Origin: Desulfobacterales bacterium
Lineage (GTDB): Bacteria > Desulfobacterota > Desulfobacteria > Desulfobacterales > C00003060
Direction: 5' to 3'
NCBI GenBank assembly: GCA_030616425.1
Contig: JAUWXJ010000002.1
Span: forward strand, 1 to 38,991
Length of the DNA stretch: 38,991 nucleotides
Both the position numbers and the translations under genes were made by a program. The notes under the pieces are model-generated. The model ran no database searches. It had not been told where the DNA came from and worked only from the letters and a program-made list of their open reading frames with translations. This document shows, piece after piece, positions 1,231-38,081 of this stretch. Position 1 is the first letter of the stretch, and each line of letters opens with the position of its first letter.

Positions 1231-1902
1231 TTATTCGTTGTCCGGTTCATGATATAGATCCCGTACCCTCAAGCCCTTCAATCTTAATAGTCTTATCCTT
1301 AATCGGAGCATCCAGATAAACAGGCCTGTGTACGCAAGGAGTGAGCCTAAAAATACCTTCAAGGTTTTTGGATCCATACCGGGATTGACCGGACTCATGG
1401 TATCTTCAGGGTGGAGGGAGGCTGTGATCCGCGGTACAATAAAGACCAAAAAGGGTACTGTAGCAAAGGCAAGAATTGAATATACCCCTGCAAATACCCG
1501 GCTTCTCTCAGGGTCGCTGACTGCCGAACGAAGCGCAAAATACGCCCCGTAGATCATAAGGAGTATTACGATCGAGGTCTGCCTGGGGTCCCAATTCCAA
1601 AATGATCCCCATGTAGCCTTTGCGAATATAGAACCGGTCACCGTGGCAAGGACGCAGAACAAAAAGCCCAACTCTGCAGCAGATTGGGCTACATAGTCTG
1701 TCTCAACCTTTCGTTTGGCCAGATAGAGAGCGCTGGCTATCATCGAGATCAAAAACGCCAGTGTTGCAATCCATGCCTGGGGCACGTGAAAAAACAGGAT
1801 GCGGGATGTCTGGCCGGGAAACCCAGCGGCTGTCCCTGCATAAAAAAAGGCAGCAACGATGATAACAGCCATCCACATTGTCAATAACAATTTAAAAATC
1901 AT
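1231..1902 (-). CDS. ccmC: Heme exporter / heme-handling protein CcmC
   Basis: 223-aa polytopic membrane protein with the WWD motif WGSFWNWDPRQT and flanking conserved His residues. Operon context supports the call. Confidence 0.9.
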   Translation of the reverse strand: MIFKLLLTMWMAVIIVAAFFYAGTAAGFPGQTSRILFFHVPQAWIATLAFLISMIASALYLAKRKVETDYVAQSAAELGFLFCVLATVTGSIFAKATWGSFWNWDPRQTSIVILLMIYGAYFALRSAVSDPERSRVFAGVYSILAFATVPFLVFIVPRITASLHPEDTMSPVNPGMDPKTLKVFLGSLLAYTGLFIWMLRLRIRLLRLKGLRVRDLYHEPDNE

Positions 1903-1953
1903 ATTTTAATTAATCCCTTTATCCCTGAACCCCTCGATTCCTGAATCCTTGTC

Positions 1954-2676
1954 CTATTCTTCCCAGATCAAAGGAAATAGAAATAATGACATAACGACCA
2001 TTATGATTACATACGCCACAGCAATCTTGACCTCAGGCCAACCAGCACTATGTATGCCAATAGCAGCCCTCTCGCATCCTTTGATACACGTAATCATAAG
2101 GGGCAACAGCAGCGGAAGAGACAGGACAGAGAACAACGCACCTCGGGTACTAGCCCTGGCTATCATGGCAGCGATTATTGTTGTGCCGGCCCCCAAACCA
2201 AGCCCTCCACTGATGATCATGGCAACAAAAAAGCCGGGAAAGTTTATCTGATAGGCCATTAAAAAAATAAACGATGGCACGATGATGAGTTCCAGGGCCC
2301 CTAACAGCGTCAAATTAAATAACAGCTTTCCAAAGAATACAGCCTGGGGACGGGCAGAAAGTTTCAACACATCTATGGTCCCGGCCTCTTCTTCCTTGAC
2401 AAAAGACCGGGAAAGGCCCGATAGGGCGGAGAAGGTCAGAATTATCCACAACAACACCGAGTACAAAAAGGGCCTTTCAGCTTCTTCGATACGGAAAGAT
2501 CCAATAGAAAAACTCACGGCTATAAGGGTGGTCACAGCAAACATCAGGATAGCATTCAGGGCGTAGCGGGTCCTGAATTCGCTGCGTAGATCACGAAACC
2601 AAATAGCGACGGCCTCATTCAGATAGGTTGATGACCGTGTCTGCATAGTCTGCCTCCCGTTTTTCATTTGATGCAA
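1954..2676 (-). CDS. ccmB: Heme exporter permease CcmB
   Basis: Six-helix hydrophobic protein of about 230 aa lying between ccmA and ccmC. The start may be the internal Met at 2646. Either start overlaps the ccmA stop. Confidence 0.85.
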   Translation of the reverse strand: MHQMKNGRQTMQTRSSTYLNEAVAIWFRDLRSEFRTRYALNAILMFAVTTLIAVSFSIGSFRIEEAERPFLYSVLLWIILTFSALSGLSRSFVKEEEAGTIDVLKLSARPQAVFFGKLLFNLTLLGALELIIVPSFIFLMAYQINFPGFFVAMIISGGLGLGAGTTIIAAMIARASTRGALFSVLSLPLLLPLMITCIKGCERAAIGIHSAGWPEVKIAVAYVIIMVVMSLFLFPLIWEE

Positions 2677-3235
2677 TGACGGTCATCCCTGACTGCCTCT
2701 GGTTTGAAATAATCTGTTCCAGAACATCAATCCCTTTGCTGTCAAGGTTGGTTGCTGGTTCGTCCAACAATAGCAGCGGTGGCTTATGAAGCAACGCCTG
2801 AGCAAGTTTCAGCCTCTGCTTCATCCCGGAAGAGTATTCCCTTCCCATTTTTGTTGCATGTTCTGCCAGTCCCACGAGCTCAATTATATTGAGACAATCG
2901 TTGCGATTGCAAGCAAGGCCCCTTACCCTGCAAAAAAATTCTATGCTCTCAAGGCCCGTCAATTCATCATACAAAGACAAGGCAGGCGCAACCATCCCTA
3001 TAAACCGTCGCCGCGATTCTTTTGGTATGGGATCAGCGTTGAAAAACATCTCAACCCGACCAGTAGATGGCTTTACAAGACCAGCAATGATCCGAAGGAG
3101 GGTGCTCTTGCCTGACCCGTTCCATCCAGTAATGGCAAGAACATCTCCTTGATTTAACTGGAAGGAGATGTTTTTGAACACGAGAGTTTCTCCGTAATGC
3201 TTGCCTATGCCGGATACCTTTAGCGTAAACATCAC
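2615..3235 (-). CDS. ccmA: Heme exporter ABC ATPase CcmA
   Basis: Walker A is GWNGSGKST, the ABC signature is YSSGMKQR, and Walker B is LLLLDEP. It is the first gene of the ccm operon. Confidence 0.9.
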   Translation of the reverse strand: MMFTLKVSGIGKHYGETLVFKNISFQLNQGDVLAITGWNGSGKSTLLRIIAGLVKPSTGRVEMFFNADPIPKESRRRFIGMVAPALSLYDELTGLESIEFFCRVRGLACNRNDCLNIIELVGLAEHATKMGREYSSGMKQRLKLAQALLHKPPLLLLDEPATNLDSKGIDVLEQIISNQRQSGMTVIASNEKREADYADTVINLSE

Positions 3236-3450: not shown

Positions 3451-5373
3451 ATGACCGAAAAACTCAAATCCAGAAAATGGCAATATCCAACCATCATAGG
3501 TATTGTCGCCTTATTATTGATGATTTTCGATGTTTCCTTACAACCCGGACAGATGCATTTACTCTACGCCCGGGAAGCCGTGGATAGCTCGGATCGATTC
3601 TCTTCTGATGTCAGTGCCGCCAACTTCGTACCCTCAAAAATCACTTGTCTTCAGATTATCCAAGAGGATTATGAAGGTTTACGGCTATCTTACCCATCTA
3701 AGGTATTCGTTGATTTTGTAAAGAACGAAATCTATGTCAACGATTCTGGAAACAACACTATATTGGTCTATACCCACGACTTCTATCCGCTTCTTTCTAT
3801 AAGCAAATCGGACGGCGTTGAAGTACCTGTGGGGGTAGCAGTTGATCCCAAAGGATACGTATTTATTACCCAGGCACCTACGAAACAGAAAAAGGGAAGG
3901 ATTTCTGTCTTGGATCCTTGTTTAAAATGGAAAAAGGATATTTTTTTTCAGGGATTTGAAGGCGCTGATGATTTTCAACCAACCAATATTGCAATTAACG
4001 ACAAAGGTCATTTCTATGTAACTGCCAGTTCCTATACTGGGGTGGTGGTTTTGGATAAGGACGGAACATTTTCCCATCTGTTGACACCAACCGACAGCCT
4101 CGGAAAAGCGCCGGTCCAAAAGGCTAAAATACACGACGTGGAGATAGACAGCCAGGGCAACATATACCTTTTGAGTGAAGATATGGGCCGTATTTATGTG
4201 TATGATTCCCAGGAGCGCTTTCTGTTTAAGTTTGGGGAAAAGGGGGGCAGTACCGGGAAACTGAGCCGACCCCGGGGTGTGGCGGTGGACAGTCGCAACA
4301 AACGGATCTACGTGATCGACTATATGCGCCATACAGCAAGTGCTTATTCAACCGACGGACGCTTTTTGTTCGAGTTCGGCGGTAAGGGATGGGGAAGGGG
4401 CTGGTTCCAGTATCCTACCGACATAGCCGTAGACGCCCTGGGTAACGTCCTGGTCGCAGACACGTTCAACAATAGAGTGCAGGTTCTTTCAATACAAGGA
4501 GGTCCACCCGTTACTGTTGCAAAGGTTGAAGAGGCCAAACCCGAAGCTCCTGTTACAGAACACTTGGTTGAAGAAGCCAAACTCAAGGTTCCTGTCAAAG
4601 AACGATTAGTTGCAGAGGCTAAACCGAGCCCCCCTGTCAAAGAAGAAACTATCAAAGAAGAAATAGTTGAAGAGGTTAAGCCCAAGGCTCCTGTCAAAAA
4701 AGAATTAGCAGAGCCAAAACCTGCAAAGTATTATGTCCTGACGGCAAACATGAACCTGCGTGAAAAAAGCACCACCAAGAGCAGGATCATTCAGTTGCTG
4801 AAAAAGGGCGAAGAGTTTCATATCCTGGATCAATATAAACATGATGACTTCAATTCTTGGTTTCTCGTAAAAACCAGATCCGGGCTCACAGGCTGGTTCT
4901 GTGGAATCTATAGCGGAAAAGACATGTTCGTGGAAAAGGAACGAAAACGGATTCCAGCCGTTGCAAAGGCTGAAAAGGCTGAGCCCAAAGTGCCCGTCAA
5001 AAAAAAATTGGTTGAAGAGGTTAAACCCAAAGCTCTTGTGATTAAAAAATTGATTAAGCCAAAACCTGCAAAGTATTATGTCTTGACGGCAGACATGCAA
5101 GATGTGGCAACACTGAAGCTCAAAGTGCTCAGTGGAGACGGCGATTTGAACTCTGCCAAGCGGATGGCAAAAAAGCTTGGAAATATGGGTTATAAGATAA
5201 AATTGGTCGATCGCGCTCCGCGATCCAACTTTTTGCGAAATACAGTCTACTTTGCATCAGGATTTCAGGACGAAGCAAAACGTCTTGTGTCCAGTCTGGG
5301 CAATAATACGATTCTGAAACCTTTAACCTGGTCTTCAAAATTTGATATTATTGTTGTAACAGGCAAGAAATGA
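3451..5373 (+). CDS. Membrane-anchored NHL-repeat beta-propeller protein with Pro/Lys/Glu-rich linkers, an SH3b domain and a C-terminal LytR_C-like domain
   Basis: N-terminal TM segment IIGIVALLLMIFDV. Repeated NHL-type blades are present (YVNDSGNNTILVY, GVAVDPKGYVFIT, IYVIDYMRHTASAY, VLVADTFNNRVQVL). An SH3b-like segment reads YYVLTANMNLREKSTTKSRIIQLLKKGEEFHILD...WFLVKTRSGLTGWF. The terminal LKVLSGDGDLNSAKRMAKKLGNMGYKIKLVDRAP...IIVVTG resembles LytR_C. Confidence 0.7.
   Translation: MTEKLKSRKWQYPTIIGIVALLLMIFDVSLQPGQMHLLYAREAVDSSDRFSSDVSAANFVPSKITCLQIIQEDYEGLRLSYPSKVFVDFVKNEIYVNDSGNNTILVYTHDFYPLLSISKSDGVEVPVGVAVDPKGYVFITQAPTKQKKGRISVLDPCLKWKKDIFFQGFEGADDFQPTNIAINDKGHFYVTASSYTGVVVLDKDGTFSHLLTPTDSLGKAPVQKAKIHDVEIDSQGNIYLLSEDMGRIYVYDSQERFLFKFGEKGGSTGKLSRPRGVAVDSRNKRIYVIDYMRHTASAYSTDGRFLFEFGGKGWGRGWFQYPTDIAVDALGNVLVADTFNNRVQVLSIQGGPPVTVAKVEEAKPEAPVTEHLVEEAKLKVPVKERLVAEAKPSPPVKEETIKEEIVEEVKPKAPVKKELAEPKPAKYYVLTANMNLREKSTTKSRIIQLLKKGEEFHILDQYKHDDFNSWFLVKTRSGLTGWFCGIYSGKDMFVEKERKRIPAVAKAEKAEPKVPVKKKLVEEVKPKALVIKKLIKPKPAKYYVLTADMQDVATLKLKVLSGDGDLNSAKRMAKKLGNMGYKIKLVDRAPRSNFLRNTVYFASGFQDEAKRLVSSLGNNTILKPLTWSSKFDIIVVTGKK
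4666..4752 (+). repeat. Intragenic 87-bp direct repeat, copy 1 (linker plus KPKPAKYYVLTA module start)
   Basis: Aligns without gaps to 5011-5097 at roughly 84 percent identity by eye. It includes an identical 32-nt run, gccaaaacctgcaaagtattatgtc. Confidence 0.85.
5011..5097 (+). repeat. Intragenic 87-bp direct repeat, copy 2
   Basis: See 4666-4752. This copy encodes VEEVKPKALVIKKLIKPKPAKYYVLTADM, against VEEVKPKAPVKKELAEPKPAKYYVLTANM in copy 1. Confidence 0.85.
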
Positions 5374-5495: not shown

Positions 5496-6899
5496 ATGAA
5501 AAAAATAATCTATCGTTTGATAATAGTTGTATTTGCTGGAATCTGGGCCCTGTCATGTACTTTCAAGCAACCCTCCAAACGCCCTCGATCAACCAACCAG
5601 GGTCAGGTCTTTTTCTATCTTTCCTGCCCCAAGAAACCTACGTTTGATATCTCTTTTTCTCTTTCCGGCATGAGCTTCATGAACAAGGACGGCGAGTGGA
5701 TCGACGTGGCGTTGGATAAACGCATTCGTTCTGCGGAAATTGCGGAAAGGCAGGTCAAATTGCTGGAGTTTTATATGCCTGCTGGAAGGTATAAACGGAT
5801 CAAGTGGACTATTTCAGAAGCAACGGTAAAAAAGGACAAGAAAAGCTTTACCTTGGCCTTGCCCCAGCCCAAGGGTGAGCACCTTATGGATATCGAGTTT
5901 TCTGTGTTAGGCCGGGAAAGCCTGTGTCTATTTGGAGACTGGGATCCAGAGGAATCTATATTCGACAAATATCTCTTTAGGCCTAAGCTAAATATTCGGA
6001 AACAGGGTGCAGAAATCACAAACACTTTAGTCTATGTAACAAACACCGACTCTGACTGCGTTACGTTGATAGACAGGCAACGCGATGCGGTAGTAGCCAC
6101 CATAGCAGTGGGCAGAGCGCCTATTGGAATTGTGGCAACCACGGATGGACATAAGCTCTATGTGGCCAATTCCGGCTCAGACACCATTTCAGTCATCGAT
6201 ACTGCCACGAACAGGGTAACCTATACGATCAGGAACTTCGGTTACAGCCCTGCCGAGCTTGCCCTCTCCTCAGATGACGAAACCCTTTATGCAACCAACC
6301 CCGATTCAGACAATGTATCTGTTATAGACACTGTTTCCCGCACGGTAACCAGCAGAATATCTGTCGGCAAGCGCCCTTGCTGCATACTCATCGATCATGA
6401 CAGGCGCAAGGTCTATGTAACAAACACGGAGTCGCATACCATATCCGTTATTGATATCTCCACGCAATCTGTGGAAGATACGATCACGGTTGGTCTGAAT
6501 CCTACTGGTATGCTTATCCACGAGGACGACCTGTACGTGGCTAATTCGGGCTCAAACAGTATCTACATATTGGACCTTCCTTCTCACACAACAACAAAGA
6601 CGATATCTGTTGGACAAAAGCCTACCTGGCTCCTCTCCGGTCTGCGAGAACGTGTCTATGTGTCTAATACAAATAGCAACCAGATTTCTTTTGTGTACCC
6701 GGATATGGATTTGGTGACCAGGAACGTGTCTGTAGGCGCCCTCCCTTCAAAGATGGCCATGGACGAATTGAGAAGAAAACTCTATGTCGTAAATTCGATG
6801 TCAGAGGACGTGTCTGTTATAGACCTGCCAACATACAATGTGAAAAGGGTGATTCAGGTGGGAAGAACCCCTCACGGCATTGCCCTGATTGAGGAATGA
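5496..6899 (+). CDS. Probable lipoprotein with a DUF4382-like N-terminal domain and a YVTN-family beta-propeller
   Basis: Signal peptide ending in ...IWALSC. There are about eight 40-residue repeats of the YVTN type (LVYVTNTDSDCVTLID, LYVANSGSDTISVID, LYATNPDSDNVSVID, VYVTNTESHTISVID, LYVANSGSNSIYILD, VYVSNTNSNQISFV, LYVVNSMSEDVSVID). Confidence 0.75.
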   Translation: MKKIIYRLIIVVFAGIWALSCTFKQPSKRPRSTNQGQVFFYLSCPKKPTFDISFSLSGMSFMNKDGEWIDVALDKRIRSAEIAERQVKLLEFYMPAGRYKRIKWTISEATVKKDKKSFTLALPQPKGEHLMDIEFSVLGRESLCLFGDWDPEESIFDKYLFRPKLNIRKQGAEITNTLVYVTNTDSDCVTLIDRQRDAVVATIAVGRAPIGIVATTDGHKLYVANSGSDTISVIDTATNRVTYTIRNFGYSPAELALSSDDETLYATNPDSDNVSVIDTVSRTVTSRISVGKRPCCILIDHDRRKVYVTNTESHTISVIDISTQSVEDTITVGLNPTGMLIHEDDLYVANSGSNSIYILDLPSHTTTKTISVGQKPTWLLSGLRERVYVSNTNSNQISFVYPDMDLVTRNVSVGALPSKMAMDELRRKLYVVNSMSEDVSVIDLPTYNVKRVIQVGRTPHGIALIEE

Positions 6900-6943: not shown

Positions 6944-9070
6944 ATGAAGCGCTGGACTGCTGTTTTTCTACTGATCTTGGTCTGGTTCCGGGGGGTCTAT
7001 GCCGGAGATGATATACATGGTTCGGCCAGCCTTTCTTATCGCTCCACCGAAACAAAGACTGCCCAAGAAAAAAAGAGCAGCTGGAGCTTCAACCAAACAT
7101 ATAACATAGGCCTTACCAAGGAGTTTACGCCTAAAGTAAATTTCACTGCCAACCTTGGCGTCAATGTCACAGAAACAGATGATACAAAGACCACGCGGCT
7201 CTATCCGGATATGAGGCTGAATCTGTCAAATGAATATTTTAGGGCCGATACCGGGTATCAGTTGATCGAAAGGGGCCTTGACATCTTGACCATGGTCTCA
7301 GACGAGGAGCGGTTCACCACTGAATCCTGGAATACCAATTTTTCCACAAAACTCGAAAAATATCCGAAGCTCCGACTCCGTTACAACCAAGACAAATCTT
7401 ATGACCACCTGTCGGTTCACAAGACAAATACCCAAACAAACAGGTTTTCCGGAAGCGCTGATTATGCCTTCCGTTTCTTGAATCTTTACTATGACTATAC
7501 CAATAACATTTCAGAGGATTATGTTGCAGACAGTACCCAGGAGACTAATACCCATGACGGGAGAGTAAATTTCAGAAAGTCTTTTTGGAGGAACAAGGTA
7601 ACATCGTCCGGAAGCTATTCGCTAAGGGAGAGCAAGACGGAGACAACAACAAGGGGACAGGATGTCGAGGTTGCCGAACAAAAGAGCCCCACTGCAGGAT
7701 TGTATTCTGGCGACCCTCCTAATGTTTTGATCATAGAGCTTGACCCTGAAGCCGAGCTCATAGATGGCGACAAGGCCAATAGTACGGATTCGGACATAAA
7801 CATCGGTGTTGACACCAACCAGAACATCGGGCTGGAGCTCACGTTTTCCGCAGAGATTAATAAGATATATCTTTATACGACCACGCCAATTGACGGTTTT
7901 AACGAGGACGCCTTCACCTGGGCCGTGTATAGTAGCAGTGACAACATTACCTGGGCATCGATAACCTCTTCGGAAGATTATAACGCGAACCAGGAGAGGT
8001 TTGAGTTCTCTGTTACCGAAACGGCCCGCTATTTTAAGGTGGTAAACACGGCAAACGACAATCACGCCCTCGAGGTAACAGAGATCGAGGCTTACGGCAC
8101 TACCACCCAGACATCTTATACCTCAAGCGAGACGGTGAGCACCACGGAAACCGTCAATGCCAATCTTGGTTTTCGGCCCTTTACGTGGCTCTCCTTTACA
8201 TATGACGTCAAGCAAGACATGCAGAAGGACGACGAGAGTGGGGCCGACGCAACTAAAACCAGGCGGTCGACCCAGAATATAAGCGGTCTTCTTGGAAAAG
8301 GATTTCAGGTTCACAAGTATCTGATGGTCCGGCCCCAGTATCAAAAGTGGTTGGAATTTAAAGATGAACCTGATGCAGAGACAAGGAGTTCGACCGATAC
8401 GTACAGGGTACATTTTCTTTCATCCCCGTTAAAAACGCTTGATACCGACCTTTCCCTGAACCACAGCGTATCAAAAGATGAGGATGTAACACAATCAAGG
8501 AACTCATCCGCTCTGCTGCATATAGCGGCCAAACTCCGTGAAGGGGCGGATCTGGACATAGACGCCAACATGTCCCGGACTGAGAATCTTTCAAGTGAAA
8601 CCGTGTCAACAACCAGAACTCTTGATTCAAACCTCCGCCTTAAGCTTACCAGCGCGTTGACAACTGAGATAGAGTATAATAAAACCTGGACCGAAACTCA
8701 AAATATCGCCCCAGGCCCGAGCGAGGGTACCAGCGGGCGTAATTCCTCTGCTAAGGCCACCATTTACTGGCGGCCCTCACACGATTTCTATTTCAGAGGA
8801 TCATACAGCGTTGACCGGGACGAAGAGGCAGGGGATGAAACCTCTCAGCAGGACTATGACCTGAACTGGTTGATTACCGAGAAGATACAGCTCAGTATGG
8901 GCTATGACATAGACAGGAATGATACGGTCCAGACAACCTATTCCTCTGACCTTTCGTGGGGCCTGAGCCGGACGTTCACGCTCAGGTTCGGATTTAACTG
9001 GACTCGGAAAGAGGCCGATACGGAAACAGAAACGCAAGTCGCAACCGTAGATCTCTCAGCACGGTTTTAG
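6944..9070 (+). CDS. Predicted outer-membrane beta-barrel protein with an inserted F5/8-type-C (discoidin)-like domain
   Basis: Signal peptide ending VYAGDD. Long runs of alternating hydrophobic/polar residues rich in T/S/N/Y are typical of OM barrels, and the C-terminus ends ...VDLSARF. Residues ~255-385 (nt 7706-8098) read ...LIDGDKANST...FTWAVYSSSDNITWASI...ARYFKVVNTANDNHALEVTEIEAYG, which is a discoidin-like signature. Confidence 0.6.
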   Translation: MKRWTAVFLLILVWFRGVYAGDDIHGSASLSYRSTETKTAQEKKSSWSFNQTYNIGLTKEFTPKVNFTANLGVNVTETDDTKTTRLYPDMRLNLSNEYFRADTGYQLIERGLDILTMVSDEERFTTESWNTNFSTKLEKYPKLRLRYNQDKSYDHLSVHKTNTQTNRFSGSADYAFRFLNLYYDYTNNISEDYVADSTQETNTHDGRVNFRKSFWRNKVTSSGSYSLRESKTETTTRGQDVEVAEQKSPTAGLYSGDPPNVLIIELDPEAELIDGDKANSTDSDINIGVDTNQNIGLELTFSAEINKIYLYTTTPIDGFNEDAFTWAVYSSSDNITWASITSSEDYNANQERFEFSVTETARYFKVVNTANDNHALEVTEIEAYGTTTQTSYTSSETVSTTETVNANLGFRPFTWLSFTYDVKQDMQKDDESGADATKTRRSTQNISGLLGKGFQVHKYLMVRPQYQKWLEFKDEPDAETRSSTDTYRVHFLSSPLKTLDTDLSLNHSVSKDEDVTQSRNSSALLHIAAKLREGADLDIDANMSRTENLSSETVSTTRTLDSNLRLKLTSALTTEIEYNKTWTETQNIAPGPSEGTSGRNSSAKATIYWRPSHDFYFRGSYSVDRDEEAGDETSQQDYDLNWLITEKIQLSMGYDIDRNDTVQTTYSSDLSWGLSRTFTLRFGFNWTRKEADTETETQVATVDLSARF

Positions 9071-9083
9071 AGGTACAAAAACA

Positions 9084-9653
9084 ATGAAAAATTCCAAGTA
9101 TCTATTTCTTGCCCTGTTGTTCGTCGTCTTCTTTTCAGGATGCAGTGTCCCCATAAGTTATATCCATCCCACAGCAGACCTTACATATATCAAGACAGTC
9201 GCTATTGTACCTTTTCAAAATCTTACTCAGCAAAAAGGGGCGGAAGGCAAGGTAATGAATGTCGTGGCCTCAGAGGTGTTAAGGCGGGGTGTGTTTGATG
9301 TTGTTGAATTCGGAGAGGTCACCAAGGTGCTGAAGGAGGAAGGTTTAAAAAGCGACGGCTCAATCAGCAAACGTGTGGCAGAAAGAGCGGCAAAGCGCTT
9401 GAATGTTGAGGCTTTCATAGTAGGCGCGGTTGAAGAGTACGGTGTCTCGCAAATAGGCGAAAGCTCATATCCAGAAGTCTCGGTCTCCTTAAAGTTGTTA
9501 GATGCAAAATCTTATAAGATCCTATGGGAAACGACGCACAGCGTAAAAGGGACAACGGTCCTAGATCGGCTCTTTGGTATCAGCAAGAAAAGCACGAGCG
9601 ATCTTGCAAAAGAGCTTGTTGCCGAGATGTTTGATACGTTGTTTGGGGGATAG
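9084..9653 (+). CDS. Lipoprotein, DUF799/GNA1162-like (TolB-N/LpoB-like fold), paralog 1
   Basis: Lipobox FFSGC. The pattern VAIVPFQNLT...VLRRGVFDVVE...VEAFIVGAVEEYG...LKLLDAKSYKILWE is shared with the two following genes. Confidence 0.55.
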   Translation: MKNSKYLFLALLFVVFFSGCSVPISYIHPTADLTYIKTVAIVPFQNLTQQKGAEGKVMNVVASEVLRRGVFDVVEFGEVTKVLKEEGLKSDGSISKRVAERAAKRLNVEAFIVGAVEEYGVSQIGESSYPEVSVSLKLLDAKSYKILWETTHSVKGTTVLDRLFGISKKSTSDLAKELVAEMFDTLFGG

Positions 9654-9661
9654 TATCAATC

Positions 9662-9686
9662 AATAAGCTGGATATCTTATTTTTTC
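9662..9686 (+). terminator. Weak AT-rich hairpin plus T-run after the 9084 gene
   Basis: AATAAG-ctggatat-CTTATT followed by TTTTT. The stem is only 6 bp and AT-rich. Confidence 0.2.
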
Positions 9687-9811
9687 TAAGTACATGTTTT
9701 CATAGGCAAAAGCAGGAAAATACGTGATCGAATTTATGAGTTAGAGCACTAAGTCCCTAAGTCTGGGCCCACCATTTTTGAAAACGTATCTGGACGTAAA
9801 AGATTCATTTA

Positions 9812-11335
9812 TTGAAAAAAGATACACTCATCATTGTTGTATTGATCCTTTTTGTTTGTCTACCGATTCATAGCTATGGGAAAAAGGAGTGGCCTATCAA
9901 GAAAAATAATGTTGCGGTCATGCCCTTTGGAGCCTTCACCATTGGTTCCCTCTCCTTTGATTTTACTCATCTGGTCAGAGATCGCCTGATGGATGACAAA
10001 TTCAGCCTTATTTCTCAGGACACGTTGGAAGCATTCCTTGTGGAAAAAAGAGTCCGGAGGACAGATTTCTTAGACCGGGCAACTATCAGGGAGATGGGTA
10101 TGGCCTTGAACGCAGATGCCTTGATAATCGGTTCTGTGGATGTCCTTGCTGGTGGTGAAAATCCCCGGATCGCCATGAGCGCCCAGATGATAGACTGTGT
10201 AGAGTCCTCTGTTGTATGGGCTAACTCCATTTCGTATACCGGGGAAGACTTTGCCGGCTTTCTTGGCATAGGTAAGATAAATTCCCTTCAAAGGCTGGCA
10301 GAAATAGCAGTAAGAGATCTTCTTAAGGGCTTACCCACTGAGGTCCGTGTAGATGATGGGCTGGCAAGGCCATTTGAAATTGTACAAGCGAGCTTCTTCC
10401 CCAAGGTGCTGAAAGGTGGCCAGACAACCAACGTGTCAATTGAGGTAAGGGAGATTACAGGAAAGCCCAAGGATATTAAGGCCTTTGTCCTTGACACCGA
10501 GGTCGTCCTTAAAACAGAGGCCGGAGAATGGTATGCTGGAACGTTAACTGCCCCGACCATTGAAGGGGTATACCCCTTGAGAGTTTATGTAACAAACCAG
10601 GATAATACGCTTTTCAGCATGGATGATTTGGCTGAACTGACAGTCGACAACACCCCGCCCGAGTTTTTCGTTTCATTCCGCCAAAGGCTTATATCGCCTA
10701 ATAACGATGGTAAAATGGACGACATAATGTTCTTCCCCGAAATCCTGAAGGCAGATACCATAAGAAACTGGAGGGTTGAGATTACTGATGAAGCCGGAAC
10801 GGTTATGAGATCAGAAGAGAGTATTGGGAGCTTGCCAGGGGGGTTTATCTGGCGGGGTGAGAACAATAAGTATAAGCGGGTTAAAGATGGAACTTATTTT
10901 TGCCGGTTGATGTTGGAAGACAAGGCTGGTAACAGGTCGGTTTCACCAAAAGAGGCTATAGTAGTCGACTCAACACCGCCTGAAGTGGATGTGGTCCTTG
11001 CTGCTGAAGATGATGAAGGGATAACCATAGAGGTAAAAACCAAAGATATTGACAAAATGGGGGGCTGGGAGTTAATCATATATGATAGAAAAGGGAATGA
11101 GGCAGGCAAGTTTGAGGGCAAAGGGGATATACCAACGACACTAAACTGTACATTGAAGCAGAATCAGGAAGGCCCAAGCCTGGAAAAAGAGGGCTTCTTG
11201 GCCTATTCACTTGAAATTAGCGACATTGCGGGAAACAGGTTAGAAAGAGAAAAAGAACCTCTGAAGCCACCCCGACCAGAGGAACCTGAGAGAGAACCGT
11301 CTGAGAAAAAAGAAGTATGGGTGGAGGATTTTTGA
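9812..11335 (+). CDS. Exported protein: N-terminal DUF799/LpoB-like module (paralog 2) fused to FlgD-Ig-like beta-sandwich domains and an acidic Pro/Glu tail
   Basis: TTG start as called by the ORF track, followed by a signal peptide. The N-terminal module reads VAVMPFGAF...ADALIIGSVDVL...MIDCVESSVVWAN. The Ig-like segment reads VDNTPPEF...ISPNNDGKMDDIMFFPE...WRVEITDEAGTVMRS...WRGENNKYKRVKDGTYFCRLMLEDKAGNRS...VDSTPPEV. Confidence 0.6.
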   Translation: MKKDTLIIVVLILFVCLPIHSYGKKEWPIKKNNVAVMPFGAFTIGSLSFDFTHLVRDRLMDDKFSLISQDTLEAFLVEKRVRRTDFLDRATIREMGMALNADALIIGSVDVLAGGENPRIAMSAQMIDCVESSVVWANSISYTGEDFAGFLGIGKINSLQRLAEIAVRDLLKGLPTEVRVDDGLARPFEIVQASFFPKVLKGGQTTNVSIEVREITGKPKDIKAFVLDTEVVLKTEAGEWYAGTLTAPTIEGVYPLRVYVTNQDNTLFSMDDLAELTVDNTPPEFFVSFRQRLISPNNDGKMDDIMFFPEILKADTIRNWRVEITDEAGTVMRSEESIGSLPGGFIWRGENNKYKRVKDGTYFCRLMLEDKAGNRSVSPKEAIVVDSTPPEVDVVLAAEDDEGITIEVKTKDIDKMGGWELIIYDRKGNEAGKFEGKGDIPTTLNCTLKQNQEGPSLEKEGFLAYSLEISDIAGNRLEREKEPLKPPRPEEPEREPSEKKEVWVEDF

Positions 11336-11344
11336 CATGAGGCT

Positions 11345-11929
11345 TTGATTCTTATGCAAGGCCGGCTTTTTTTTCTATTGATCAGCCTGTTCTTAGTTGT
11401 CTGTCCCGGATGTTATTCTCGTCCAGGCCCAAATAGTTACCTGAGACCTGGTACCGACCAGTCAAAGATCGACAAGGTTGCGGTCTTTCCGTTCCACAAC
11501 AACACTCAAGTGTCTGAGGCCAGCAGTATTGTGACCAAGGCCTTTATCACAGAGCTGTTTGAAAGGAAAAAGCTTAAGGTCGAATTTCCGGGTAATATAA
11601 GAAGCTTCCTTGTCAGTAAGCGAATTATTGTAAGGACAGGCGTCGATCTTGAAACCATAAAAGTAATGGCCAAAAGACTGGGAGTCGACGCCGTTATCTT
11701 AGGGGAGGTAGATGAATACATAGGTGTGGATGACAGAAAAAAAGCTGTCATTCCTGTTGTTTCTATCAGGTCCAGGATGGTGGACGGCCGGAGCGGCAAG
11801 ATCCTGTGGATGGCGCAACACAGGAGAATAGGTAATGATTATATAAAAGTTCTCGATTTTGGAAAGGTAAGGTCGGTAGCCGCATTGACTCGAAGGGTTG
11901 TCAAGGAAATGATCCAGACCATGCCGTGA
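11345..11929 (+). CDS. Lipoprotein, DUF799/GNA1162-like, paralog 3
   Basis: TTG start and a Cys-containing signal end, LVVCPGC. The pattern VAVFPFHNNT...VDAVILGEVDEY...MVDGRSGKILWMAQH parallels 9084-9653. Confidence 0.55.
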   Translation: MILMQGRLFFLLISLFLVVCPGCYSRPGPNSYLRPGTDQSKIDKVAVFPFHNNTQVSEASSIVTKAFITELFERKKLKVEFPGNIRSFLVSKRIIVRTGVDLETIKVMAKRLGVDAVILGEVDEYIGVDDRKKAVIPVVSIRSRMVDGRSGKILWMAQHRRIGNDYIKVLDFGKVRSVAALTRRVVKEMIQTMP

Positions 11930-12001: not shown

Positions 12002-13450
12002 ATGAGAAAACTGTCAGTATTCGCCTTTATACCTCTTCTGTGGTTTGTGGCCGCAGATAATAAGGCCCTTTATTGTGCTTCCGAGCATACAGCGGTCCTT
12101 GCTGAAGTAAAAGGTGAGATTATAGATGAAAGGGGGCTTCAGGACAGAATCGATACCATCCACAAGTTTAAGCCGCTGATCAAACCTGATGGGGGGGTGG
12201 GCGGTATCAATATCTTAGACCTTCTTGAACAGATGATCAACGAGCGCCTTATGATCCAGGAAGCTTACAGGGTCGAACTGGACAAGGATCCTGATTTTGA
12301 AAAAAGGCTTCAATCCTCCATAAGAAACCAATCTGTTACCAGATTGAGAAAAGAAGAGGTGCTTGACAAGATCAATATAAGCGAGGAAGACCTGCTTGGC
12401 TACTTCAAAAAACATTATAAAAAAGACGGGCCTGTATCAGATGAAGAGTTTCAGAAAAAGAAAAGGCGAATCCGCAAGAAGCTAAAAAGGGAAAGAGAGA
12501 AAGAGCTGTCTGACAACTTTGTTGCGATGTTAAGAAAGGAATCAGATATCTGGATCGACAGGGAGCTGCTTAATTCACTTGACACTGAAAAGGATTATAC
12601 TGCGAAAAACCCAATAATAGCACGCGTCAATGGCGAACCAATCCCCCTGAATGACATGCTGCACGATATGAGACAGGCATTTCAAAAAAGGGGCAGGATG
12701 TACAGCAGGTTAAAAGATAATAGCGAGCAAGAGAGGCTGCGTGAAGAGTTAAAGCAACAGACGCTGGATGCCCTGATCACCTACAAGTTGATCGAGCAGG
12801 AGGCATTAAGGCGTAATTACCTTAGAGACCCGGCCTTCATGGAAATTATTAGAAAGCGAAAAGAGCGTTTGCTCATTGATCAATTTAAGGAAAAAATAGT
12901 CTATCCCCTTGCTATTCCAACAAAAAAAGAGTTGACAAAGTACTATGAAGAACATATAGACAACTTCAGAAAAGGTTATCAGGTTTGGTTTAGCGAGATG
13001 ACCTTTCGAGCCCGGGAGGATGCTGAAAAGGCCCTGAAGGAATTAAAGCAAGGGGCAAACTTTGAATACTTGGCTACCCATGTGTCAGAAAGGTGGACAC
13101 CGAAGCAAGCGCGCGTATGGGTCAATACTGATAGGTTTCCTCTTGGGATCAGAAAAGAGCTGAATCGGCTGGAGGTCGGACAAACAAGCGATGTCCTCGC
13201 TGATGGCAGACAATACAAGATCATAAAATTAAAGGGGAAAAGAGGGGGGGCGCCCGAGGAATTTTCCCGTGTGGCTCGGAGCTTGAAGAAAATAGTTGCA
13301 CAGCAAAAATTCAACACCGCGCTTTCCGATTACTTGGCCAAATTGCGCAAAGAATCCAACATCAAGATCGATAAAAAAGCCCTGAACAGGATAGAAGAAA
13401 AGTACAAGGCTGGGCCTGCTGAAGAAACTGAAACCACGTCTACAGAATAA
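12002..13450 (+). CDS. SurA/PpiD-like periplasmic chaperone with a degenerate parvulin (PPIC-type) domain
   Basis: Signal peptide, then a SurA_N-like helical N-terminus (LLEQMINERLMIQEA). A central charged coiled region follows. A parvulin-like block reads YQVWFSEMTFRAREDAEKALKELKQGANFEYLA...GQTSDVLADGRQYKIIKL. The usual HxSHIL His residues are not evident. Confidence 0.5.
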   Translation: MRKLSVFAFIPLLWFVAADNKALYCASEHTAVLAEVKGEIIDERGLQDRIDTIHKFKPLIKPDGGVGGINILDLLEQMINERLMIQEAYRVELDKDPDFEKRLQSSIRNQSVTRLRKEEVLDKINISEEDLLGYFKKHYKKDGPVSDEEFQKKKRRIRKKLKREREKELSDNFVAMLRKESDIWIDRELLNSLDTEKDYTAKNPIIARVNGEPIPLNDMLHDMRQAFQKRGRMYSRLKDNSEQERLREELKQQTLDALITYKLIEQEALRRNYLRDPAFMEIIRKRKERLLIDQFKEKIVYPLAIPTKKELTKYYEEHIDNFRKGYQVWFSEMTFRAREDAEKALKELKQGANFEYLATHVSERWTPKQARVWVNTDRFPLGIRKELNRLEVGQTSDVLADGRQYKIIKLKGKRGGAPEEFSRVARSLKKIVAQQKFNTALSDYLAKLRKESNIKIDKKALNRIEEKYKAGPAEETETTSTE

Positions 13451-13453: not shown

Positions 13454-15403
13454 ATGAAACTAACAAAGGCAGCATCATATTCATTGTTACTCCTGGGAAT
13501 AATCCTTATCGCTTCCACTTCTTGTGAGAAAAGGGTCCCCGGGTTTGTCAAAAAGAAGTGTGTTGACTGTCACCAAAAAGAGGCCAAGCAATTTAAAGCG
13601 GCAAAGGTAGTGCATTCTCCTGTTTCCAAGGATGAGTGTGATGCCTGCCACAGGCCTCACGGGGTCATAGGCGGCGTTTATTTGAAGACCAGCCCACAGC
13701 AGCTTTGCTTTACCTGTCATACGGATAGCAAAGCCATGCTTGACAAAAAACATGTCCACACGCCGGTAAGTGAGAAAAAATGTGTCGGCTGCCACAATCC
13801 CCACTCCTCCATGAACAAAGACCTATTAATAGGGAAGGGAAATGAGTTCTGTTTTATCTGCCATAAGCAAGGTCCTTATACCAGAGAGACAACTCATGTT
13901 CCTCTATCTAAAAAGGGATGTTTGGTTTGTCATGATGCCCATGCCTCTGACTATGAGCAATACCTGTTTGACACAAAAAACAATGTGTGCGCAAAATGCC
14001 ATGACTTCAAAAAATCTGGGTTTATCACACGGCACACAGGCTATAACGTAGAACAGAGCAGCTGTGTCTCTTGCCATACATCACATTCATCTTCCAACCC
14101 CAAATTGCTGCGCGAATTCATTCATGCGCCCCTTGACAAGAACCAGTGCGCCGCCTGCCACCACCCTGCGGAATCTGCGGAAGCCTTGCAGCCCAAAGTA
14201 GAAGGGGCTGAACTCTGCTACGGGTGCCACAGGGAAAACGAGATCGCTTTCACAAAGGCCCACATCCATGATCCGGTCAACGAAGGCGATTGTCTGTCGT
14301 GCCACAGCCCCCATGCCACGGGCAACAAATATGTAACCATTCTTCCTGATGGGAAGCTTTGCTACTCGTGCCATGAAGAGACAGAGGAGTTGTCTAAGAA
14401 GCAGCATGTGCACAAGCCGATAACGGAGAACAACTGTACCGCCTGCCATAATCCCCATGCATCAAGCAACGAATATGAATTGAAAGACCTTGGCAAAACG
14501 TTATGCTTCCGATGTCACACAAAAGATGGTTTTACCCATTCAAATATTCACGAGCCTATTAAGAAAGGAAACTGTATCGTCTGCCACGACCCGCATGCAT
14601 CGGATAACAAATTTGAGCTTAAGTTGGTTGAGATCCAGCAGTGTTACACTTGTCACCAGAAAGAACAAATGCTCTTTGACCGGGTAAACGTCCACACGCC
14701 CATAAGGATTGGCAGGTGTGTCGCTTGCCACAACCCCCACTCAATTGACAGGGAAAAACTCTTGGTTCAGGCAAGGGAGAAGCTCTGCTTTAACTGCCAT
14801 CAGGGCATGCTAGATGAGGTGAAGGGGGGAACCATCCATCCCTCTTTTGAAAAAGGAGAGTGCCTGAGATGCCATAACGAACATGCCAGTGACCATGATT
14901 TTCAACTGATCGAAACAAGAGGAGAGAATTGTTACCGGTGTCATGCCAGGATTCAAGCCTCTTCTAACACGAGTAAATACAACCATGCCCCGCTCAAACA
15001 GGGAGAATGCACAGCCTGTCATAATCCCCACGGGAGCAAGATAAAGGGGCAATTGTACCGACCCGTGGGAAGCCTGTGCCTGTCATGTCATACAGATCTG
15101 GGCACACACATTAAAAAAGACAAACACAAGCACAGCCCCGCAAAGAAAGGGGACTGTCTGAAGTGCCATGCTCCCCACTATGCAAACATTGAAGGCCTGC
15201 TTGCAGCTCAGGGGGCCAGTCTATGCAAGGGTTGTCATGATCTGGAGGCTTCAGCCCTTGTAACTTCCCACAGTAGGATCGCGATAACGGGCTCTGATTG
15301 TATCGGCTGTCATGAATCACATACTTCGGAAAACAAAAGACTGTTGCACAAGGTTTTGCATCGCCCGTTTGAGGAGGGCCACTGCACAGCATGTCATGAG
15401 TAG
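13454..15403 (+). CDS. Multiheme c-type cytochrome with 26 CXXCH motifs (13 tandem di-heme modules)
   Basis: I count 26 CXXCH motifs in 649 aa. A regular unit recurs: LCxxCH, about 12 aa, H-x-P, about 5 aa, CxxCHxPH[AS]S. This is the doubled-CXXCH / c7-polymer style. The protein has an N-terminal signal with ...ASTSC. Its start lies 3 nt after the stop of the chaperone gene. Confidence 0.9.
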   Translation: MKLTKAASYSLLLLGIILIASTSCEKRVPGFVKKKCVDCHQKEAKQFKAAKVVHSPVSKDECDACHRPHGVIGGVYLKTSPQQLCFTCHTDSKAMLDKKHVHTPVSEKKCVGCHNPHSSMNKDLLIGKGNEFCFICHKQGPYTRETTHVPLSKKGCLVCHDAHASDYEQYLFDTKNNVCAKCHDFKKSGFITRHTGYNVEQSSCVSCHTSHSSSNPKLLREFIHAPLDKNQCAACHHPAESAEALQPKVEGAELCYGCHRENEIAFTKAHIHDPVNEGDCLSCHSPHATGNKYVTILPDGKLCYSCHEETEELSKKQHVHKPITENNCTACHNPHASSNEYELKDLGKTLCFRCHTKDGFTHSNIHEPIKKGNCIVCHDPHASDNKFELKLVEIQQCYTCHQKEQMLFDRVNVHTPIRIGRCVACHNPHSIDREKLLVQAREKLCFNCHQGMLDEVKGGTIHPSFEKGECLRCHNEHASDHDFQLIETRGENCYRCHARIQASSNTSKYNHAPLKQGECTACHNPHGSKIKGQLYRPVGSLCLSCHTDLGTHIKKDKHKHSPAKKGDCLKCHAPHYANIEGLLAAQGASLCKGCHDLEASALVTSHSRIAITGSDCIGCHESHTSENKRLLHKVLHRPFEEGHCTACHE

Positions 15404-15486
15404 GTGAGCCATTACTCAAGGGTTATATATTTTTAGTGAACTTATAAATTCAAATATCTGAAGAAACCGATTCTGTAGGAATAAAG

Positions 15487-16743
15487 ATGGTCGTGGTTCA
15501 AAGAAACATATACCGGGCTTTTCTTCTATTTGCCTGCGCCTTCACAGGTTTCATATCGGTGACAAACTCGGCCTATGCCAAGGGTACGCAGGTCAGTGCA
15601 GAGAAATGTCTAAAATGCCACCCTGATCTGCGCCAGGAAATGGCATCCAGGGGTGCCCATGCGCCTTTTAAGAGACTTGAATGTTCAAGTTGCCATAATC
15701 CTCACACCTCAAATTACGAACACCTGGTCAAAGAGCAGATCAGCAAACTGTGCAAGAACTGTCACAAGGGCAAGAAGGGGGTTTTTGGCAAAAAGTACGG
15801 CCACTCCCCATTTGAGGAAGGGGCGTGCCTGAAGTGCCACAGGCCTCATTCTTCCAAGAACCGAAAACTGTTGCTCGCTGCAGGGGGAAAACTCTGCTTT
15901 ACCTGCCATGCCAAGAAAGAAATCCTTTCAAAGAAATACAAGCACGACCCGGTGAAGAAAGGCAAGTGCCTAACCTGCCACAGTCCCCACACGTCTGACC
16001 ATGAAAGGATGCTGAAAAGGGGTCTTTCACAAGCGTGCGTCTCGTGCCATTCAATTAAGAGTAAGGCAGCCAAAGCGTCGCACAGTCATTACCCGGTGCA
16101 GGACTCGAAATGCACATCCTGCCATAACCCCCATGCATCAAGCCACAGCAATTTGATCAAGGAAAGTTCTCATAAGCCATTTGCCGAGAGGAAATGTACT
16201 CAATGTCATAATTCTGTCCGGTCACGTGATCCCTTGGGTGTGAAAGGTGAAGGCATGTCAGTCTGTGTTGCTTGCCACCCGTCAACCAAGGAGGATTTCA
16301 GGAAGGTCAATACCCACGTAGGGCAAGGTGTTTTTTGCATAAACTGCCATAGCCCGCATGCCTCAGATGAAGCCCACATGAAAAAGGCAAAAGAGACAAG
16401 AATATGCACAAGCTGTCATCGGGATACAAAAGAGCATTTAAGAGACAAGAAGAATAAGTACAAGCACCCGTCGGTTATGGAAGGAAAGTGCAGCGAGTGT
16501 CATCGTCCCCATGGGTCTAACTTCAGGCTACTTTATCCCACTGATGAAATCGGCGCCTGCGCTGAATGCCACAAAAGACACGTCTCGTTCACCCATCCCA
16601 TAGGAAAAGATGCTATTGACCCTAGGTCCAAGGGGGAGATTACGTGTGTCACATGTCACAACCTGATGGGAAGCCGTCACGATTTTGCATTGAGATTTGA
16701 TCGGAAAAAGGAATTGTGTATTCAGTGCCATAAGGGGTACTAG
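15487..16743 (+). CDS. Multiheme c-type cytochrome with 16 CXXCH motifs
   Basis: I count 16 CXXCH motifs in 418 aa, with the same paired-module pattern (CSSCHNPHTS, CLKCHRPHSS, CLTCHSPHTS ...). The signal peptide ends SAYAKG. Confidence 0.9.
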   Translation: MVVVQRNIYRAFLLFACAFTGFISVTNSAYAKGTQVSAEKCLKCHPDLRQEMASRGAHAPFKRLECSSCHNPHTSNYEHLVKEQISKLCKNCHKGKKGVFGKKYGHSPFEEGACLKCHRPHSSKNRKLLLAAGGKLCFTCHAKKEILSKKYKHDPVKKGKCLTCHSPHTSDHERMLKRGLSQACVSCHSIKSKAAKASHSHYPVQDSKCTSCHNPHASSHSNLIKESSHKPFAERKCTQCHNSVRSRDPLGVKGEGMSVCVACHPSTKEDFRKVNTHVGQGVFCINCHSPHASDEAHMKKAKETRICTSCHRDTKEHLRDKKNKYKHPSVMEGKCSECHRPHGSNFRLLYPTDEIGACAECHKRHVSFTHPIGKDAIDPRSKGEITCVTCHNLMGSRHDFALRFDRKKELCIQCHKGY

Positions 16744-16912: not shown

Positions 16913-16998
16913 TTCATAAACCTCAATTTGTGGCCGTGTTAAGTATATAAATACAAGATATGAGTGCGCAGAAAAATGACAGGTATATAGGGAGTATT

Positions 16999-17898
16999 AT
17001 GTCTAGAAAGATCAATTTCGTTATCCTGTTTTTGACCTTCTTCCTGATCATACCGGCAACCGCACTTTGCGCGGGAAAAGGGATTAAGCACCTTACATCG
17101 ATTACCAGAGACACGGAAACAGGCCGTTTGGGCCTGCTAGGCGGTGTCTTTTTTGATGAAAACAGGAATAGATTATATGTGACCGATACCACAAACAAAC
17201 GGATCCTCGCCTTTGATGTTGACATGAAGTTTGTGTCTGAATTCAATGCGGGCGGAGCCTTAGAGGCTCCAACCTTTCTGGTAAGAAACAGCAAAGGTCA
17301 GTTTTTTGTTGCTGAGCCAACAAAAGGTAACATTCTGTTTATTGATATTAGACAAAAGTCTGTTAAGCCAATCGATTTTTCAGGCGTTCCCAAGGCCAAC
17401 ATCATTTATCCCGGCAAGATGACCTTGGATTCGTCAGATAATCTATATATCGTTGATAAAGCCAACCAGAGGATTCTTATTTTTGATCCAGATCTACGGT
17501 TCGACAGGCAAGTCCTTGTCAAAGACGGCAAAGGCCTAAGCGATGTAAAGGTTGACTCAAGTGGTAATATTTATGCGTTAAATACAATAGGCGGATCTAT
17601 TAGCGTTTTTGACAGCCGGGGAAATCTCCTCCAAACATTTGGAAAAAAGGGCAAAGAAAAACAGGAATTCGATTTCCCCGTGAGCCTCGCCATACACCCA
17701 AAAGGGGTGATCTATGTGGTCGATCAACACAAGCATAAGGTCTTGGCCTTCAACAAAAAAGGCGAATTTCTGCTATACTTCTCAGAGTTAGGCTGGAGAG
17801 AAGGGCGCCTCCACTATCCCTCCTTTATCTGTGTAAACAAGGCTGGTAGGATCTTCATCGTCGACAGAGGGAACAGCCGCATCAGCGTTTTTGAATAA
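16999..17898 (+). CDS. Secreted NHL-repeat beta-propeller protein
   Basis: The ORF opens at 16960. The ATG at 16999 has an AGGGAG RBS and yields signal peptide MSRKINFVILFLTFFLIIPATALCAG. Six NHL-type blades are present (LYVTDTTNKRILAFD, FFVAEPTKGNILFID, LYIVDKANQRILIFD, IYALNTIGGSISVFD, IYVVDQHKHKVLAFN, IFIVDRGNSRISVFE). Confidence 0.8.
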   Translation: MSRKINFVILFLTFFLIIPATALCAGKGIKHLTSITRDTETGRLGLLGGVFFDENRNRLYVTDTTNKRILAFDVDMKFVSEFNAGGALEAPTFLVRNSKGQFFVAEPTKGNILFIDIRQKSVKPIDFSGVPKANIIYPGKMTLDSSDNLYIVDKANQRILIFDPDLRFDRQVLVKDGKGLSDVKVDSSGNIYALNTIGGSISVFDSRGNLLQTFGKKGKEKQEFDFPVSLAIHPKGVIYVVDQHKHKVLAFNKKGEFLLYFSELGWREGRLHYPSFICVNKAGRIFIVDRGNSRISVFE

Positions 17899-30628: not shown

Positions 30629-34143
<3,515 letters not shown>

Positions 34144-34247
34144 CTAGGTGTGCAGCAAGCCGGGCCGCCCTCTGCCGCGTGATGTGCGGGTACAAGACAC
34201 GATCATCGTTCTGTGGGCGGAGGCTCGCACCCGGATAGAACACGGTT

Positions 34248-34982: not shown

Positions 34983-35025
34983 GGACCCCTCAAATCCGTG
35001 ATCTTGAGATATCAGGGACCTGTTA

Positions 35026-35274: not shown

Positions 35275-35394
35275 GTTTGTGGACTCCAGGGATTCGACCA
35301 CTTTTTTGAAAATATAGTTGTTTGGTCGAATATTGTCAACCAGCGACCAGTTGCTGAGCCTTCTGGACCTTTGACTTGAGCAGCTGAGCTGTGT

Positions 35395-35752: not shown

Positions 35753-35767
35753 GGGGTTAGAGACGCT

Positions 35768-38062: not shown

Positions 38063-38081
38063 TGACGGAGGTGTTAATCGA

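Follow-up and report, generated by a model that had tools for sequence, protein, structure and literature searches.

The window analysed here is a stretch of 38,991 nucleotides (nt) from a Desulfobacterales bacterium (contig JAUWXJ010000002.1), and the gene under study lies on its plus strand at 6944..9070, as do all the features of the gene given below. It is an ATG open reading frame (ORF) of 708 amino acids (aa) plus stop, with 114 close homologues, and encodes a predicted outer-membrane beta-barrel of the family of OetI, the porin of the OetABI porin-cytochrome conduit. We found that a complete CBM32/discoidin module is inserted in this barrel, and that in the family the module differs sharply between strains whose barrels are nearly identical. 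The N-terminus, MKRWTAVFLLILVWFRGVYA|GDD, reads as a signal peptide (aa 1-20, 6944..7003), probably cleaved after VYA, which the AlphaFold2 model renders as a helix (residues 2-14) with a low predicted local distance difference test score (pLDDT). The C-terminus, DLSARF, ends in Phe, and the insert contains FTWAVYSSSDNITW at aa 324-337 and ARYFKVVNTANDNHALEVTEIEAYG at aa 361-385. The reading frame, signal peptide, terminal aromatic residue and these two motifs are as an earlier note on this DNA had described them. Predicted wall strands 1-11 (aa 23-236, 7010..7651) were assigned from DSSP secondary structure, the lipid-facing amphipathic pattern and the alternation of variable and conserved connections. 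They are followed by the inserted module with its stalk (aa 237-394, 7652..8125), and then by predicted strands 12-28 (aa 395-708, 8126..9067), which rest on DSSP, amphipathicity and a C-terminal parity that matches loop variability. Within the insert, a segment A (aa 249-292, 7688..7819; GLY...LIDGD...INIG, with a short helix at 270-273) was located by hidden Markov model (HMM) coordinates and DSSP, and precedes the discoidin/CBM32 core (aa 293-386, 7820..8101), which was located by PF00754, PF22633, PDB profile matches and Foldseek matches to CBM32. A block that is hypervariable in the window's own lineage spans 7576..8069, where contigs from other samples match both flanks but not the block itself.

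The earlier note had drawn the insert at residues ~255-385 and likened it to a discoidin (F5/8 type C) domain. An insert does interrupt the barrel there, and alignment to three insert-less orthologues (L024, L025 and L026) gives it a wider extent, aa ~237-394 (nt 7652-8125). The likeness to discoidin holds. Scanned alone with the F5_F8_type_C model, the check that the note had suggested, the segment at nt 7706-8098 matched PF00754 (E=9.6e-7, 29.4 bits; gathering cut-off 28.2), and it reached 25.3 bits with PF22633, below the cut-off of 27.8. Full-length Pfam and NCBIfam scans gave a weak DUF7840 as their sole match, and the T/S/N-rich composition of the barrel may be why the discoidin domain was missed there. 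Across the family, 19 of 25 module sequences matched PF00754 (best E 1.3e-10), and a profile of all 25 found in PDB the YeCBM32 structure 2JD9 (E=8e-5), the CBM32 of C. perfringens NagH (2W1Q, 1e-3) and domain 1 of galactose oxidase. The isolated module was modelled with a pLDDT of 93.5 and a predicted template modelling score (pTM) of 0.87, and a Foldseek search with this model returned almost exclusively CBM32 folds, at TM-scores (TMt) in the range 0.55-0.66 (7D2A 0.66, 2J1A 0.62, 7BLG 0.61). Together these matches show that aa ~237-394 form a complete CBM32/discoidin beta-sandwich between two neighbouring barrel strands. CBM32 modules carry a helix and calcium cap and bind their ligand with variable loops at the apex (PMC5291390), and the scaffold has been made into an antibody mimetic by varying three loops (PMC10404686). 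A short helix predicted at 270-273, beside the near-invariant L272 and D274 of the 'LIDGD' motif, is consistent with such a cap, the metal being putative. Precomputed Pfam labels are missing for about two-thirds of the family members found with the window protein.

That the protein forms a barrel, as the note had held, is predicted with high confidence by the full-length AlphaFold2 model (65-sequence alignment; mean pLDDT 89, pTM 0.60), which is nearly all beta-strand. Foldseek searches of PDB with this model returned large outer-membrane barrels only, with the top TM-score for MtrB (0.40/0.43). No match to MtrB_PioB (PF11854) was obtained, even at E<=10 on barrel halves, and a search of PDB with the full-length sequence gave none. 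DSSP assigns 12 strands before the insert and 17 after it, an odd total of 29. Taken at face value, this count would imply a periplasmic insert or an odd barrel, and it was ruled out by amphipathicity, conservation and the insert-less orthologues. The segment at 241-256 has the weakest lipid-facing amphipathic pattern among all strands and is variable and gapped, in contrast with the wall strands; the strands at 219-236 and 395-413 are membrane-like only at their ends distant from the insert. In the three insert-less orthologues (556-568 aa, same operon) residues ~237-390 are replaced by a short T/D/E-rich turn; two of them, L024 and L026, are the Seep-SRB1a sp. SM14434BFWG172 and CR9063A clusters of the S5 Table of Murali 2023 (PMC10553843). 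Since the segment at 241-256 is non-amphipathic, variable and deleted in these orthologues, we infer a wall of 11 + 17 = 28 predicted strands, with the insert and a two-strand stalk between strands 11 and 12. In each barrel half, the side that bears the insert also has the long protruding hairpins and the variable connections with indels, while the opposite side has tight, conserved turns. Both termini are periplasmic in other bacterial outer-membrane proteins, and if the same is assumed here the insert would sit in extracellular loop 6, counted from either terminus, facing outside as the note had supposed.

A periplasmic or lumenal plug that gates or seals the pore around the cytochrome, in the manner of TonB-dependent transporters, would agree with the naive count of 12 preceding strands, with the lowest Foldseek E-values, which belong to plugged TonB-dependent receptors, and with a pTM of 0.60 that leaves domain placement uncertain. 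We nevertheless consider a plug very improbable: TM-scores to those receptors are only 0.21-0.28, the supposed twelfth strand is deleted together with the module in the insert-less orthologues, the C-terminal count puts the strand after the insert at the extracellular face, and the strain-level hypervariability described below is unexpected in a periplasmic or lumenal domain. The earlier note had named three outcomes that would speak against it, namely no discoidin match, a periplasmic insert and no barrel; all three were tested for and none was found.

The operon containing this gene was first described in bacteria that are partnered with anaerobic methanotrophic archaea (ANME), where it encodes 16-haem and 26-haem cytochromes, a peptidyl-prolyl isomerase (PPIase) and a six-bladed propeller (Skennerton 2017, PMC5539420). 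It was later renamed as the OetABI conduit of ANME-partner sulfate reducers, with OetI as the beta-barrel, in a study where outer-membrane electron conduction by OetABI is a genomic and transcriptomic inference (Murali 2023, PMC10553843). The published criterion for OetI is BLASTP against OEU57520.1 at e-30 or membership of a curated tree, and here we judged by the leaves of that tree. Searching 5.8 billion proteins with the window protein gave 114 relatives, all from Desulfobacterales or "Deltaproteobacteria" metagenomes or metagenome-assembled genomes (MAGs), and some of these are already auto-named 'discoidin domain-containing protein' by NCBI. Leaves of the OetI tree among the homologues are NVL90216.1 (68% identical), RLB82945.1/MBW1740403.1 (66%), HID30861.1 (61%) and MBW2739412.1 (53%); a further leaf, NOY40004.1, falls in one 90% cluster with P0112 (25% identical). 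NVL90216.1 is the 'omb' of a cluster in the S5 Table that reads ccmC-ccmB-ccmA-NHL-beta-propeller-omb-...-hmlB-hmlA, and the gene order of the window, ccmCBA / NHL / YncE-propeller / barrel / lipoproteins / PPIase / 26-haem / 16-haem / NHL, is the layout of that table. The operon comprises ten genes, and its order is retained in relatives 25-32% identical and in ~20 further loci. The note had placed the barrel in a cytochrome cluster, and two ORFs further along this operon, downstream of the barrel gene, do carry 26 and 16 CXXCH motifs. Tree leaves and gene order identify the window ORF as an orthologue of OetI ('omb'). Among named relatives, Seep-SRB1c / JABXJX01 genomes come closest, and the sequencing runs that contain the window sequence are marine-sediment metagenomes. 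A Seep-SRB1c-like Desulfobacterales bacterium of marine sediment is the best explanation for the host.

We compared the module with the barrel around it across the homologues. In 64 pairs with barrels at least 95% identical the cores average 68% identity, with a minimum of 44%. Such divergence recurs in at least eight independent groups, with barrels 93-100% and cores 44-82% identical, drawn from NCBI, ENA, JGI and Logan assemblies, and one group of 16 cluster representatives holds about a dozen different modules. The pattern is also seen in DNA. Over 5.9 kb, taking in the upstream gene and three downstream genes, the MAG contigs L027 and L028 agree at 99-100% identity, except in a sharply bounded block of ~490 nt (aa ~219-381), where they are 60-70% identical or cannot be aligned. 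The same mosaic is found between L029 and L013, which come from different archives, on a background 93-97% identical. In the window's own lineage, contigs of three samples (X3, X5 and X7) match both flanks of the stretch ~7576-8069 at a depth of 13-19, which drops to 0.08-2.6 over the stretch itself; the contigs break there, and their loose ends translate to other module alleles. In one group with near-identical barrels the fold-core residues are invariant, and the surface patches at aa 300-307, 315-324 and 330-351 together with most of segment A are hypervariable. A separate observation concerns samples X5 and X7, in which contigs join 7888 to 8069 and omit 180 nt within the module core; this jump reflects either an allele whose module is shorter or divergent sequence that the alignment bridged.

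Could this variability be produced by assembly chimeras together with the clustering of proteins at 90% identity? In favour of such an artefact, the comparison sequences are all MAGs or metagenome contigs, pairs alike in barrel and in module are concealed by the clustering, and assemblers break at the module region. We give it very little credence, as the pattern recurs across the independent barrel groups and assembly sources listed above, all alleles read through in frame as intact ORFs and have the full fold core, and the breakpoints coincide with domain borders in two independent DNA comparisons. A strain chimera would moreover still need divergent alleles to exist.

Rearranged forms of the module were also found. 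In 14 of the 114 homologues it is circularly permuted, such that the ~40-aa segment A (GLY...LIDGDK...INIG) comes after the core (HMM 24-59 bits). These are P0041, P0059, P0064, P0069, P0070, P0072, P0074, P0075, P0077, P0078, P0086, P0090, P0102 and P0108 (for example L027:785-2875). Permuted and standard modules occur in barrels 96-99% identical. The possibility that the permuted forms make up a single clade was rejected, as they are interleaved with standard forms on a neighbour-joining tree based on the barrel; the interleaving fits module exchange, and the barrel tree is silent on the number of permutation events. One homologue, P0017 (837 aa), carries a tandem duplication, A-core-A-core, at residues 242-519, as expected of an intermediate if duplication and later trimming at both ends gave rise to the permutation.

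No silent donor copies were found in 29 sources (472 kb), each of which has one core and one segment A, both within the gene. Searches for border repeats at the module gave only short, chance-level matches, and no reverse transcriptase was found among the window ORFs scanned. Mutagenesis by a retroelement is disfavoured, as the differences include indels and permutation and the scanned ORFs lack a reverse transcriptase. Programmed cassette variation would be recognised by nearby donors or a template repeat; neither appeared in these sequences, and donors might lie at a distance. Because silent donors, border repeats and a reverse transcriptase were not found in these searches, allelic replacement within the population by homologous recombination is probably the simplest mechanism.

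The architecture, which the earlier note had called unusual, turns out to be the rule within its own family, which numbers more than 700 representative clusters. When 1.84 billion representatives were searched exhaustively with a profile, 1458 members of the family passed E<=1e-3, of which 732 passed E<=1e-30; MAGs of Nitrospirota, Zixibacteria, Desulfobulbaceae and Syntrophaceae are among them. The discoidin core is present in 138 of 144 new distant representatives, and only four full-length proteins are without it. In addition to the insert-less loci L024:9998-11668, L025:3371-5077 and L026:9998-11680, the insert is missing from the orthologues P0128, P0164, P0168 and P0195, giving insert-less lengths of 556-589 aa overall. 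On the barrel-based tree the four insert-less full-length proteins each stand beside different insert-bearing neighbours, which makes at least three losses of the module. L024-L026 retain the operon's ten genes in full, and a search of these three loci for an operon partner lost together with the module found none. Among close homologues the core and the barrel are about equally conserved (identity 0.55 versus 0.60-0.61), and among distant representatives core identity is 0.37 versus 0.23-0.25 for the barrel. Because nearly all distant representatives keep the core, and because at this distance it is more conserved than the barrel, the module is ancestral, with a scaffold under purifying selection, yet dispensable for the conduit.

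This combination of conservation, variability and loss bears on what the module does. It could be a platform or cap for docking proteins, and keep either the conduit's extracellular cytochrome or a filament of OmcS/OmcX-type cytochromes in place at the mouth of the pore. In favour of docking are the module's placement where the porin-cytochrome conduit opens outwards, a core better conserved than the barrel, the ability of CBM32 scaffolds to bind proteins by way of their loops (PMC10404686), and the proposal that filaments dock on such conduits (Murali 2023, PMC10553843). Yet the insert-less orthologues keep every operon gene, both cytochromes included, and the module is hypervariable among strains whose flanking operon genes are 99-100% identical (the cytochrome genes lie outside that comparison), which makes a conserved partner unlikely; on balance we find docking doubtful. 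The module could alternatively be an exposed shield or decoy without a ligand, its variability reflecting only the evasion of phages, predators or bacteriocins for which OetI is the receptor. Sharp cassette replacement of a surface segment is typical of receptor escape, and the recurrent complete loss of the module is a typical escape route. We hold a pure decoy to be quite improbable, as over long distances conservation of the fold core and of the DG / TEIEAY motifs exceeds that of the barrel, pointing to a retained scaffold function, and as the module is kept in 138 of 144 representatives; escape is, in addition, compatible with a binding role, and the two do not exclude one another.

None of these four rivals fits the evidence as well as the explanation that we favour, with a probability of roughly 0.6, namely that OetI is a porin with a surface-exposed binding module, for a putative ligand, under diversifying cassette exchange. 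The module would stand on its two-strand stalk at the outer mouth of the conduit and act as an accessory binding module, in which variable loops are displayed on a constant, Ca-capped scaffold, as in other CBM32 modules. By holding an external ligand it would tether or orient the conduit; the ligand might be a glycan of the matrix or of a partner cell, or organics on a mineral surface. Its surface would diversify by homologous recombination between alleles, with the conserved barrel-coding flanks serving as homology arms. What drives this would be frequency-dependent selection on specificity for a ligand or partner, evasion of phages or predators, or both. A role in external binding is made more plausible by the strain-level hypervariability of the module surface.

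Several points weigh against this explanation. The window sequence passes PF00754 only marginally, and only with the module scanned alone, the full-length scan reporting neither PF00754 nor PF22633. The 28-strand count, the extracellular side and the placing of the variable patches in apical loops rest on DSSP, parity and conservation, not on geometry, and the full-length pTM of only 0.60 makes the position of the module relative to the pore uncertain. At least three losses of the module with every operon gene retained mean that it is dispensable for the conduit itself. Database clustering at 90% identity inflates the share of divergent modules, as pairs with the same barrel and the same module are hidden, which biases the averages and not the existence of mosaic pairs. 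Since the relatives are all uncultured and the sequences compared come from MAGs or metagenome contigs, some chimerism is possible.

More speculatively, the module could be a strain-specific recognition tag at the mouth of the conduit, with its hypervariable, exchanged surface choosing the partner cell surface, the S-layer or matrix glycan, or the mineral-bound polymer to which the cell is wired. We advance this only tentatively and think it unlikely on present evidence. If it were true, module alleles would sort with partner or niche, and those obligately syntrophic Seep-SRB1a lineages that have lost the module would have settled into a fixed partnership served by other adhesins.

The other genes of the operon are on the plus strand and follow the published arrangement. 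Upstream of the barrel gene lie a 640-aa NHL beta-propeller / SH3 / LytR_C protein (3451..5373; Pfam and synteny), which corresponds to the 'NHL repeat protein' column of the S5 Table, and a 467-aa YncE/YVTN-type beta-propeller lipoprotein with the lipobox ALSC (5496..6899; domain matches and conserved synteny). Downstream are three envelope genes, assigned by conserved synteny (9084..11929), for an LpoB/GNA1162-like lipoprotein (189 aa), an Ig/CHU_C-like protein (507 aa) and a small lipoprotein-like protein (194 aa). They are followed by a SurA-like peptidyl-prolyl isomerase of 482 aa (12002..13450), which is among the four core genes of the operon of Skennerton 2017, and by c-type cytochromes with 26 haems (649 aa) and 16 haems (418 aa) at 13454..16743, identified by CXXCH counts of 26 and 16, Pfam and NCBIfam, and matching the hmlB / hmlA columns of the S5 Table. 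A six-bladed NHL beta-propeller protein of 312 aa (16960..17898) is the last operon gene, on the evidence of domain matches, synteny and the literature. On the minus strand, the divergent ccmC-ccmB-ccmA genes for system I cytochrome c maturation (1231..3235; Pfam) are placed as in the published JABXJX01 cluster.

In the stretch at 9084-11929, the LpoB/GNA1162 match is DUF799-like, and the equivalent stretch of HotSeep-1 has one gene annotated as CsgG-like or OmpA-like; the conduit may have more outer-membrane components than the three named ones. Nine loci (L009, L011, L012, L013, L016, L017, L018, L022 and L023) have ~2-3 kb of extra DNA beside the second lipoprotein gene, in the Ig/CHU_C-PPIase interval. 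It comes after that gene in L009 and L022 and before it in the other seven (L011, L012, L013, L016, L017, L018 and L023), and the extra DNA of L011 contains a cytochrome-like match; additional cytochrome genes can apparently be accommodated in the operon around the second lipoprotein gene. A segment of ~35 nt at 9719-9753, between the 189-aa and 507-aa genes, recurs on short contigs from three samples that run into unrelated sequence at either end, a pattern suggestive of a short repeat. Further downstream, at 30629-38801 and 13-21 kb from the conduit operon, lie dnaN, gyrB, yidC and jag with a thymidylate-synthase-like gene between them. Because the dnaN/gyrB/yidC/jag set is usually near the chromosomal origin, the conduit operon may be origin-proximal as well. 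Genes GSU2494/2495 of G. sulfurreducens presumably belong to a related cluster near omcS, and one paper confirms cytochromes at these two loci.

The comparison with known systems places these findings as follows. The window protein is of the same family, in the same operon gene for gene, as the published OetI of the OetABI conduit or direct interspecies electron transfer (DIET) cluster (PMC10553843, PMC5539420), where OetI was treated only as a predicted beta-barrel. The discoidin/CBM32 module is unmentioned in the text and 37 supplements of these publications, and full-text searches found no literature linking discoidin to extracellular electron transfer, a multihaem cytochrome or a beta-barrel. 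MtrB of the Shewanella MtrCAB complex (6R2Q chain B), which gave the best TM-score, is likewise a large barrel that sheathes a multihaem cytochrome, but no sequence relationship was detected, and MtrB has no folded domain in a loop. It has 26 strands, compared with the 28 that we predict here. With CBM32 / F5/8 type C modules (2JD9, 2W1Q, 7D2A) the window module shares the beta-sandwich, Pfam and profile similarity, and a conserved core with variable loops, and the helix predicted by its DG motif is consistent with their cap. Known CBM32 modules, however, are appended to secreted enzymes or adhesins, whereas this one is embedded in the loop of an integral membrane barrel, some OetI alleles are circularly permuted, and the sugar-binding residues are not assignable. 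Cassette-type antigenic variation is known from Neisseria, in the loops of porin and Opa and in gene conversion between pilE and pilS. There too a sharply bounded surface segment differs between near-identical strains. In OetI, by contrast, a whole folded domain of ~150 aa is exchanged and not a short loop, and with no silent donors in the 472 kb and no border repeats, allelic replacement fits better than programmed switching. The gene is thus a new member of the OetI family, and the discoidin label pre-exists in automated annotation. What appear to be undescribed in the literature searched are the placement of the module in an extracellular loop, its near-universality, its exchange as a cassette between strains, its permuted and duplicated states and its recurrent losses.

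No other part of OetI is as conserved as the module over long distances, and none varies as much between strains. Nature seldom embeds an entire folded domain in the loop of a beta-barrel membrane protein; here standard, tandem, permuted and deleted states can all be observed, and they matter to the study of protein evolution and to the engineering of outer-membrane proteins for surface display. Much of the flux of methane from the sea floor is under the control of direct interspecies electron transfer that links methane-oxidising archaea with sulfate reducers. In this partnership the module offers a testable handle on attachment and partner specificity, and on how the conduit finds and holds its electron source.

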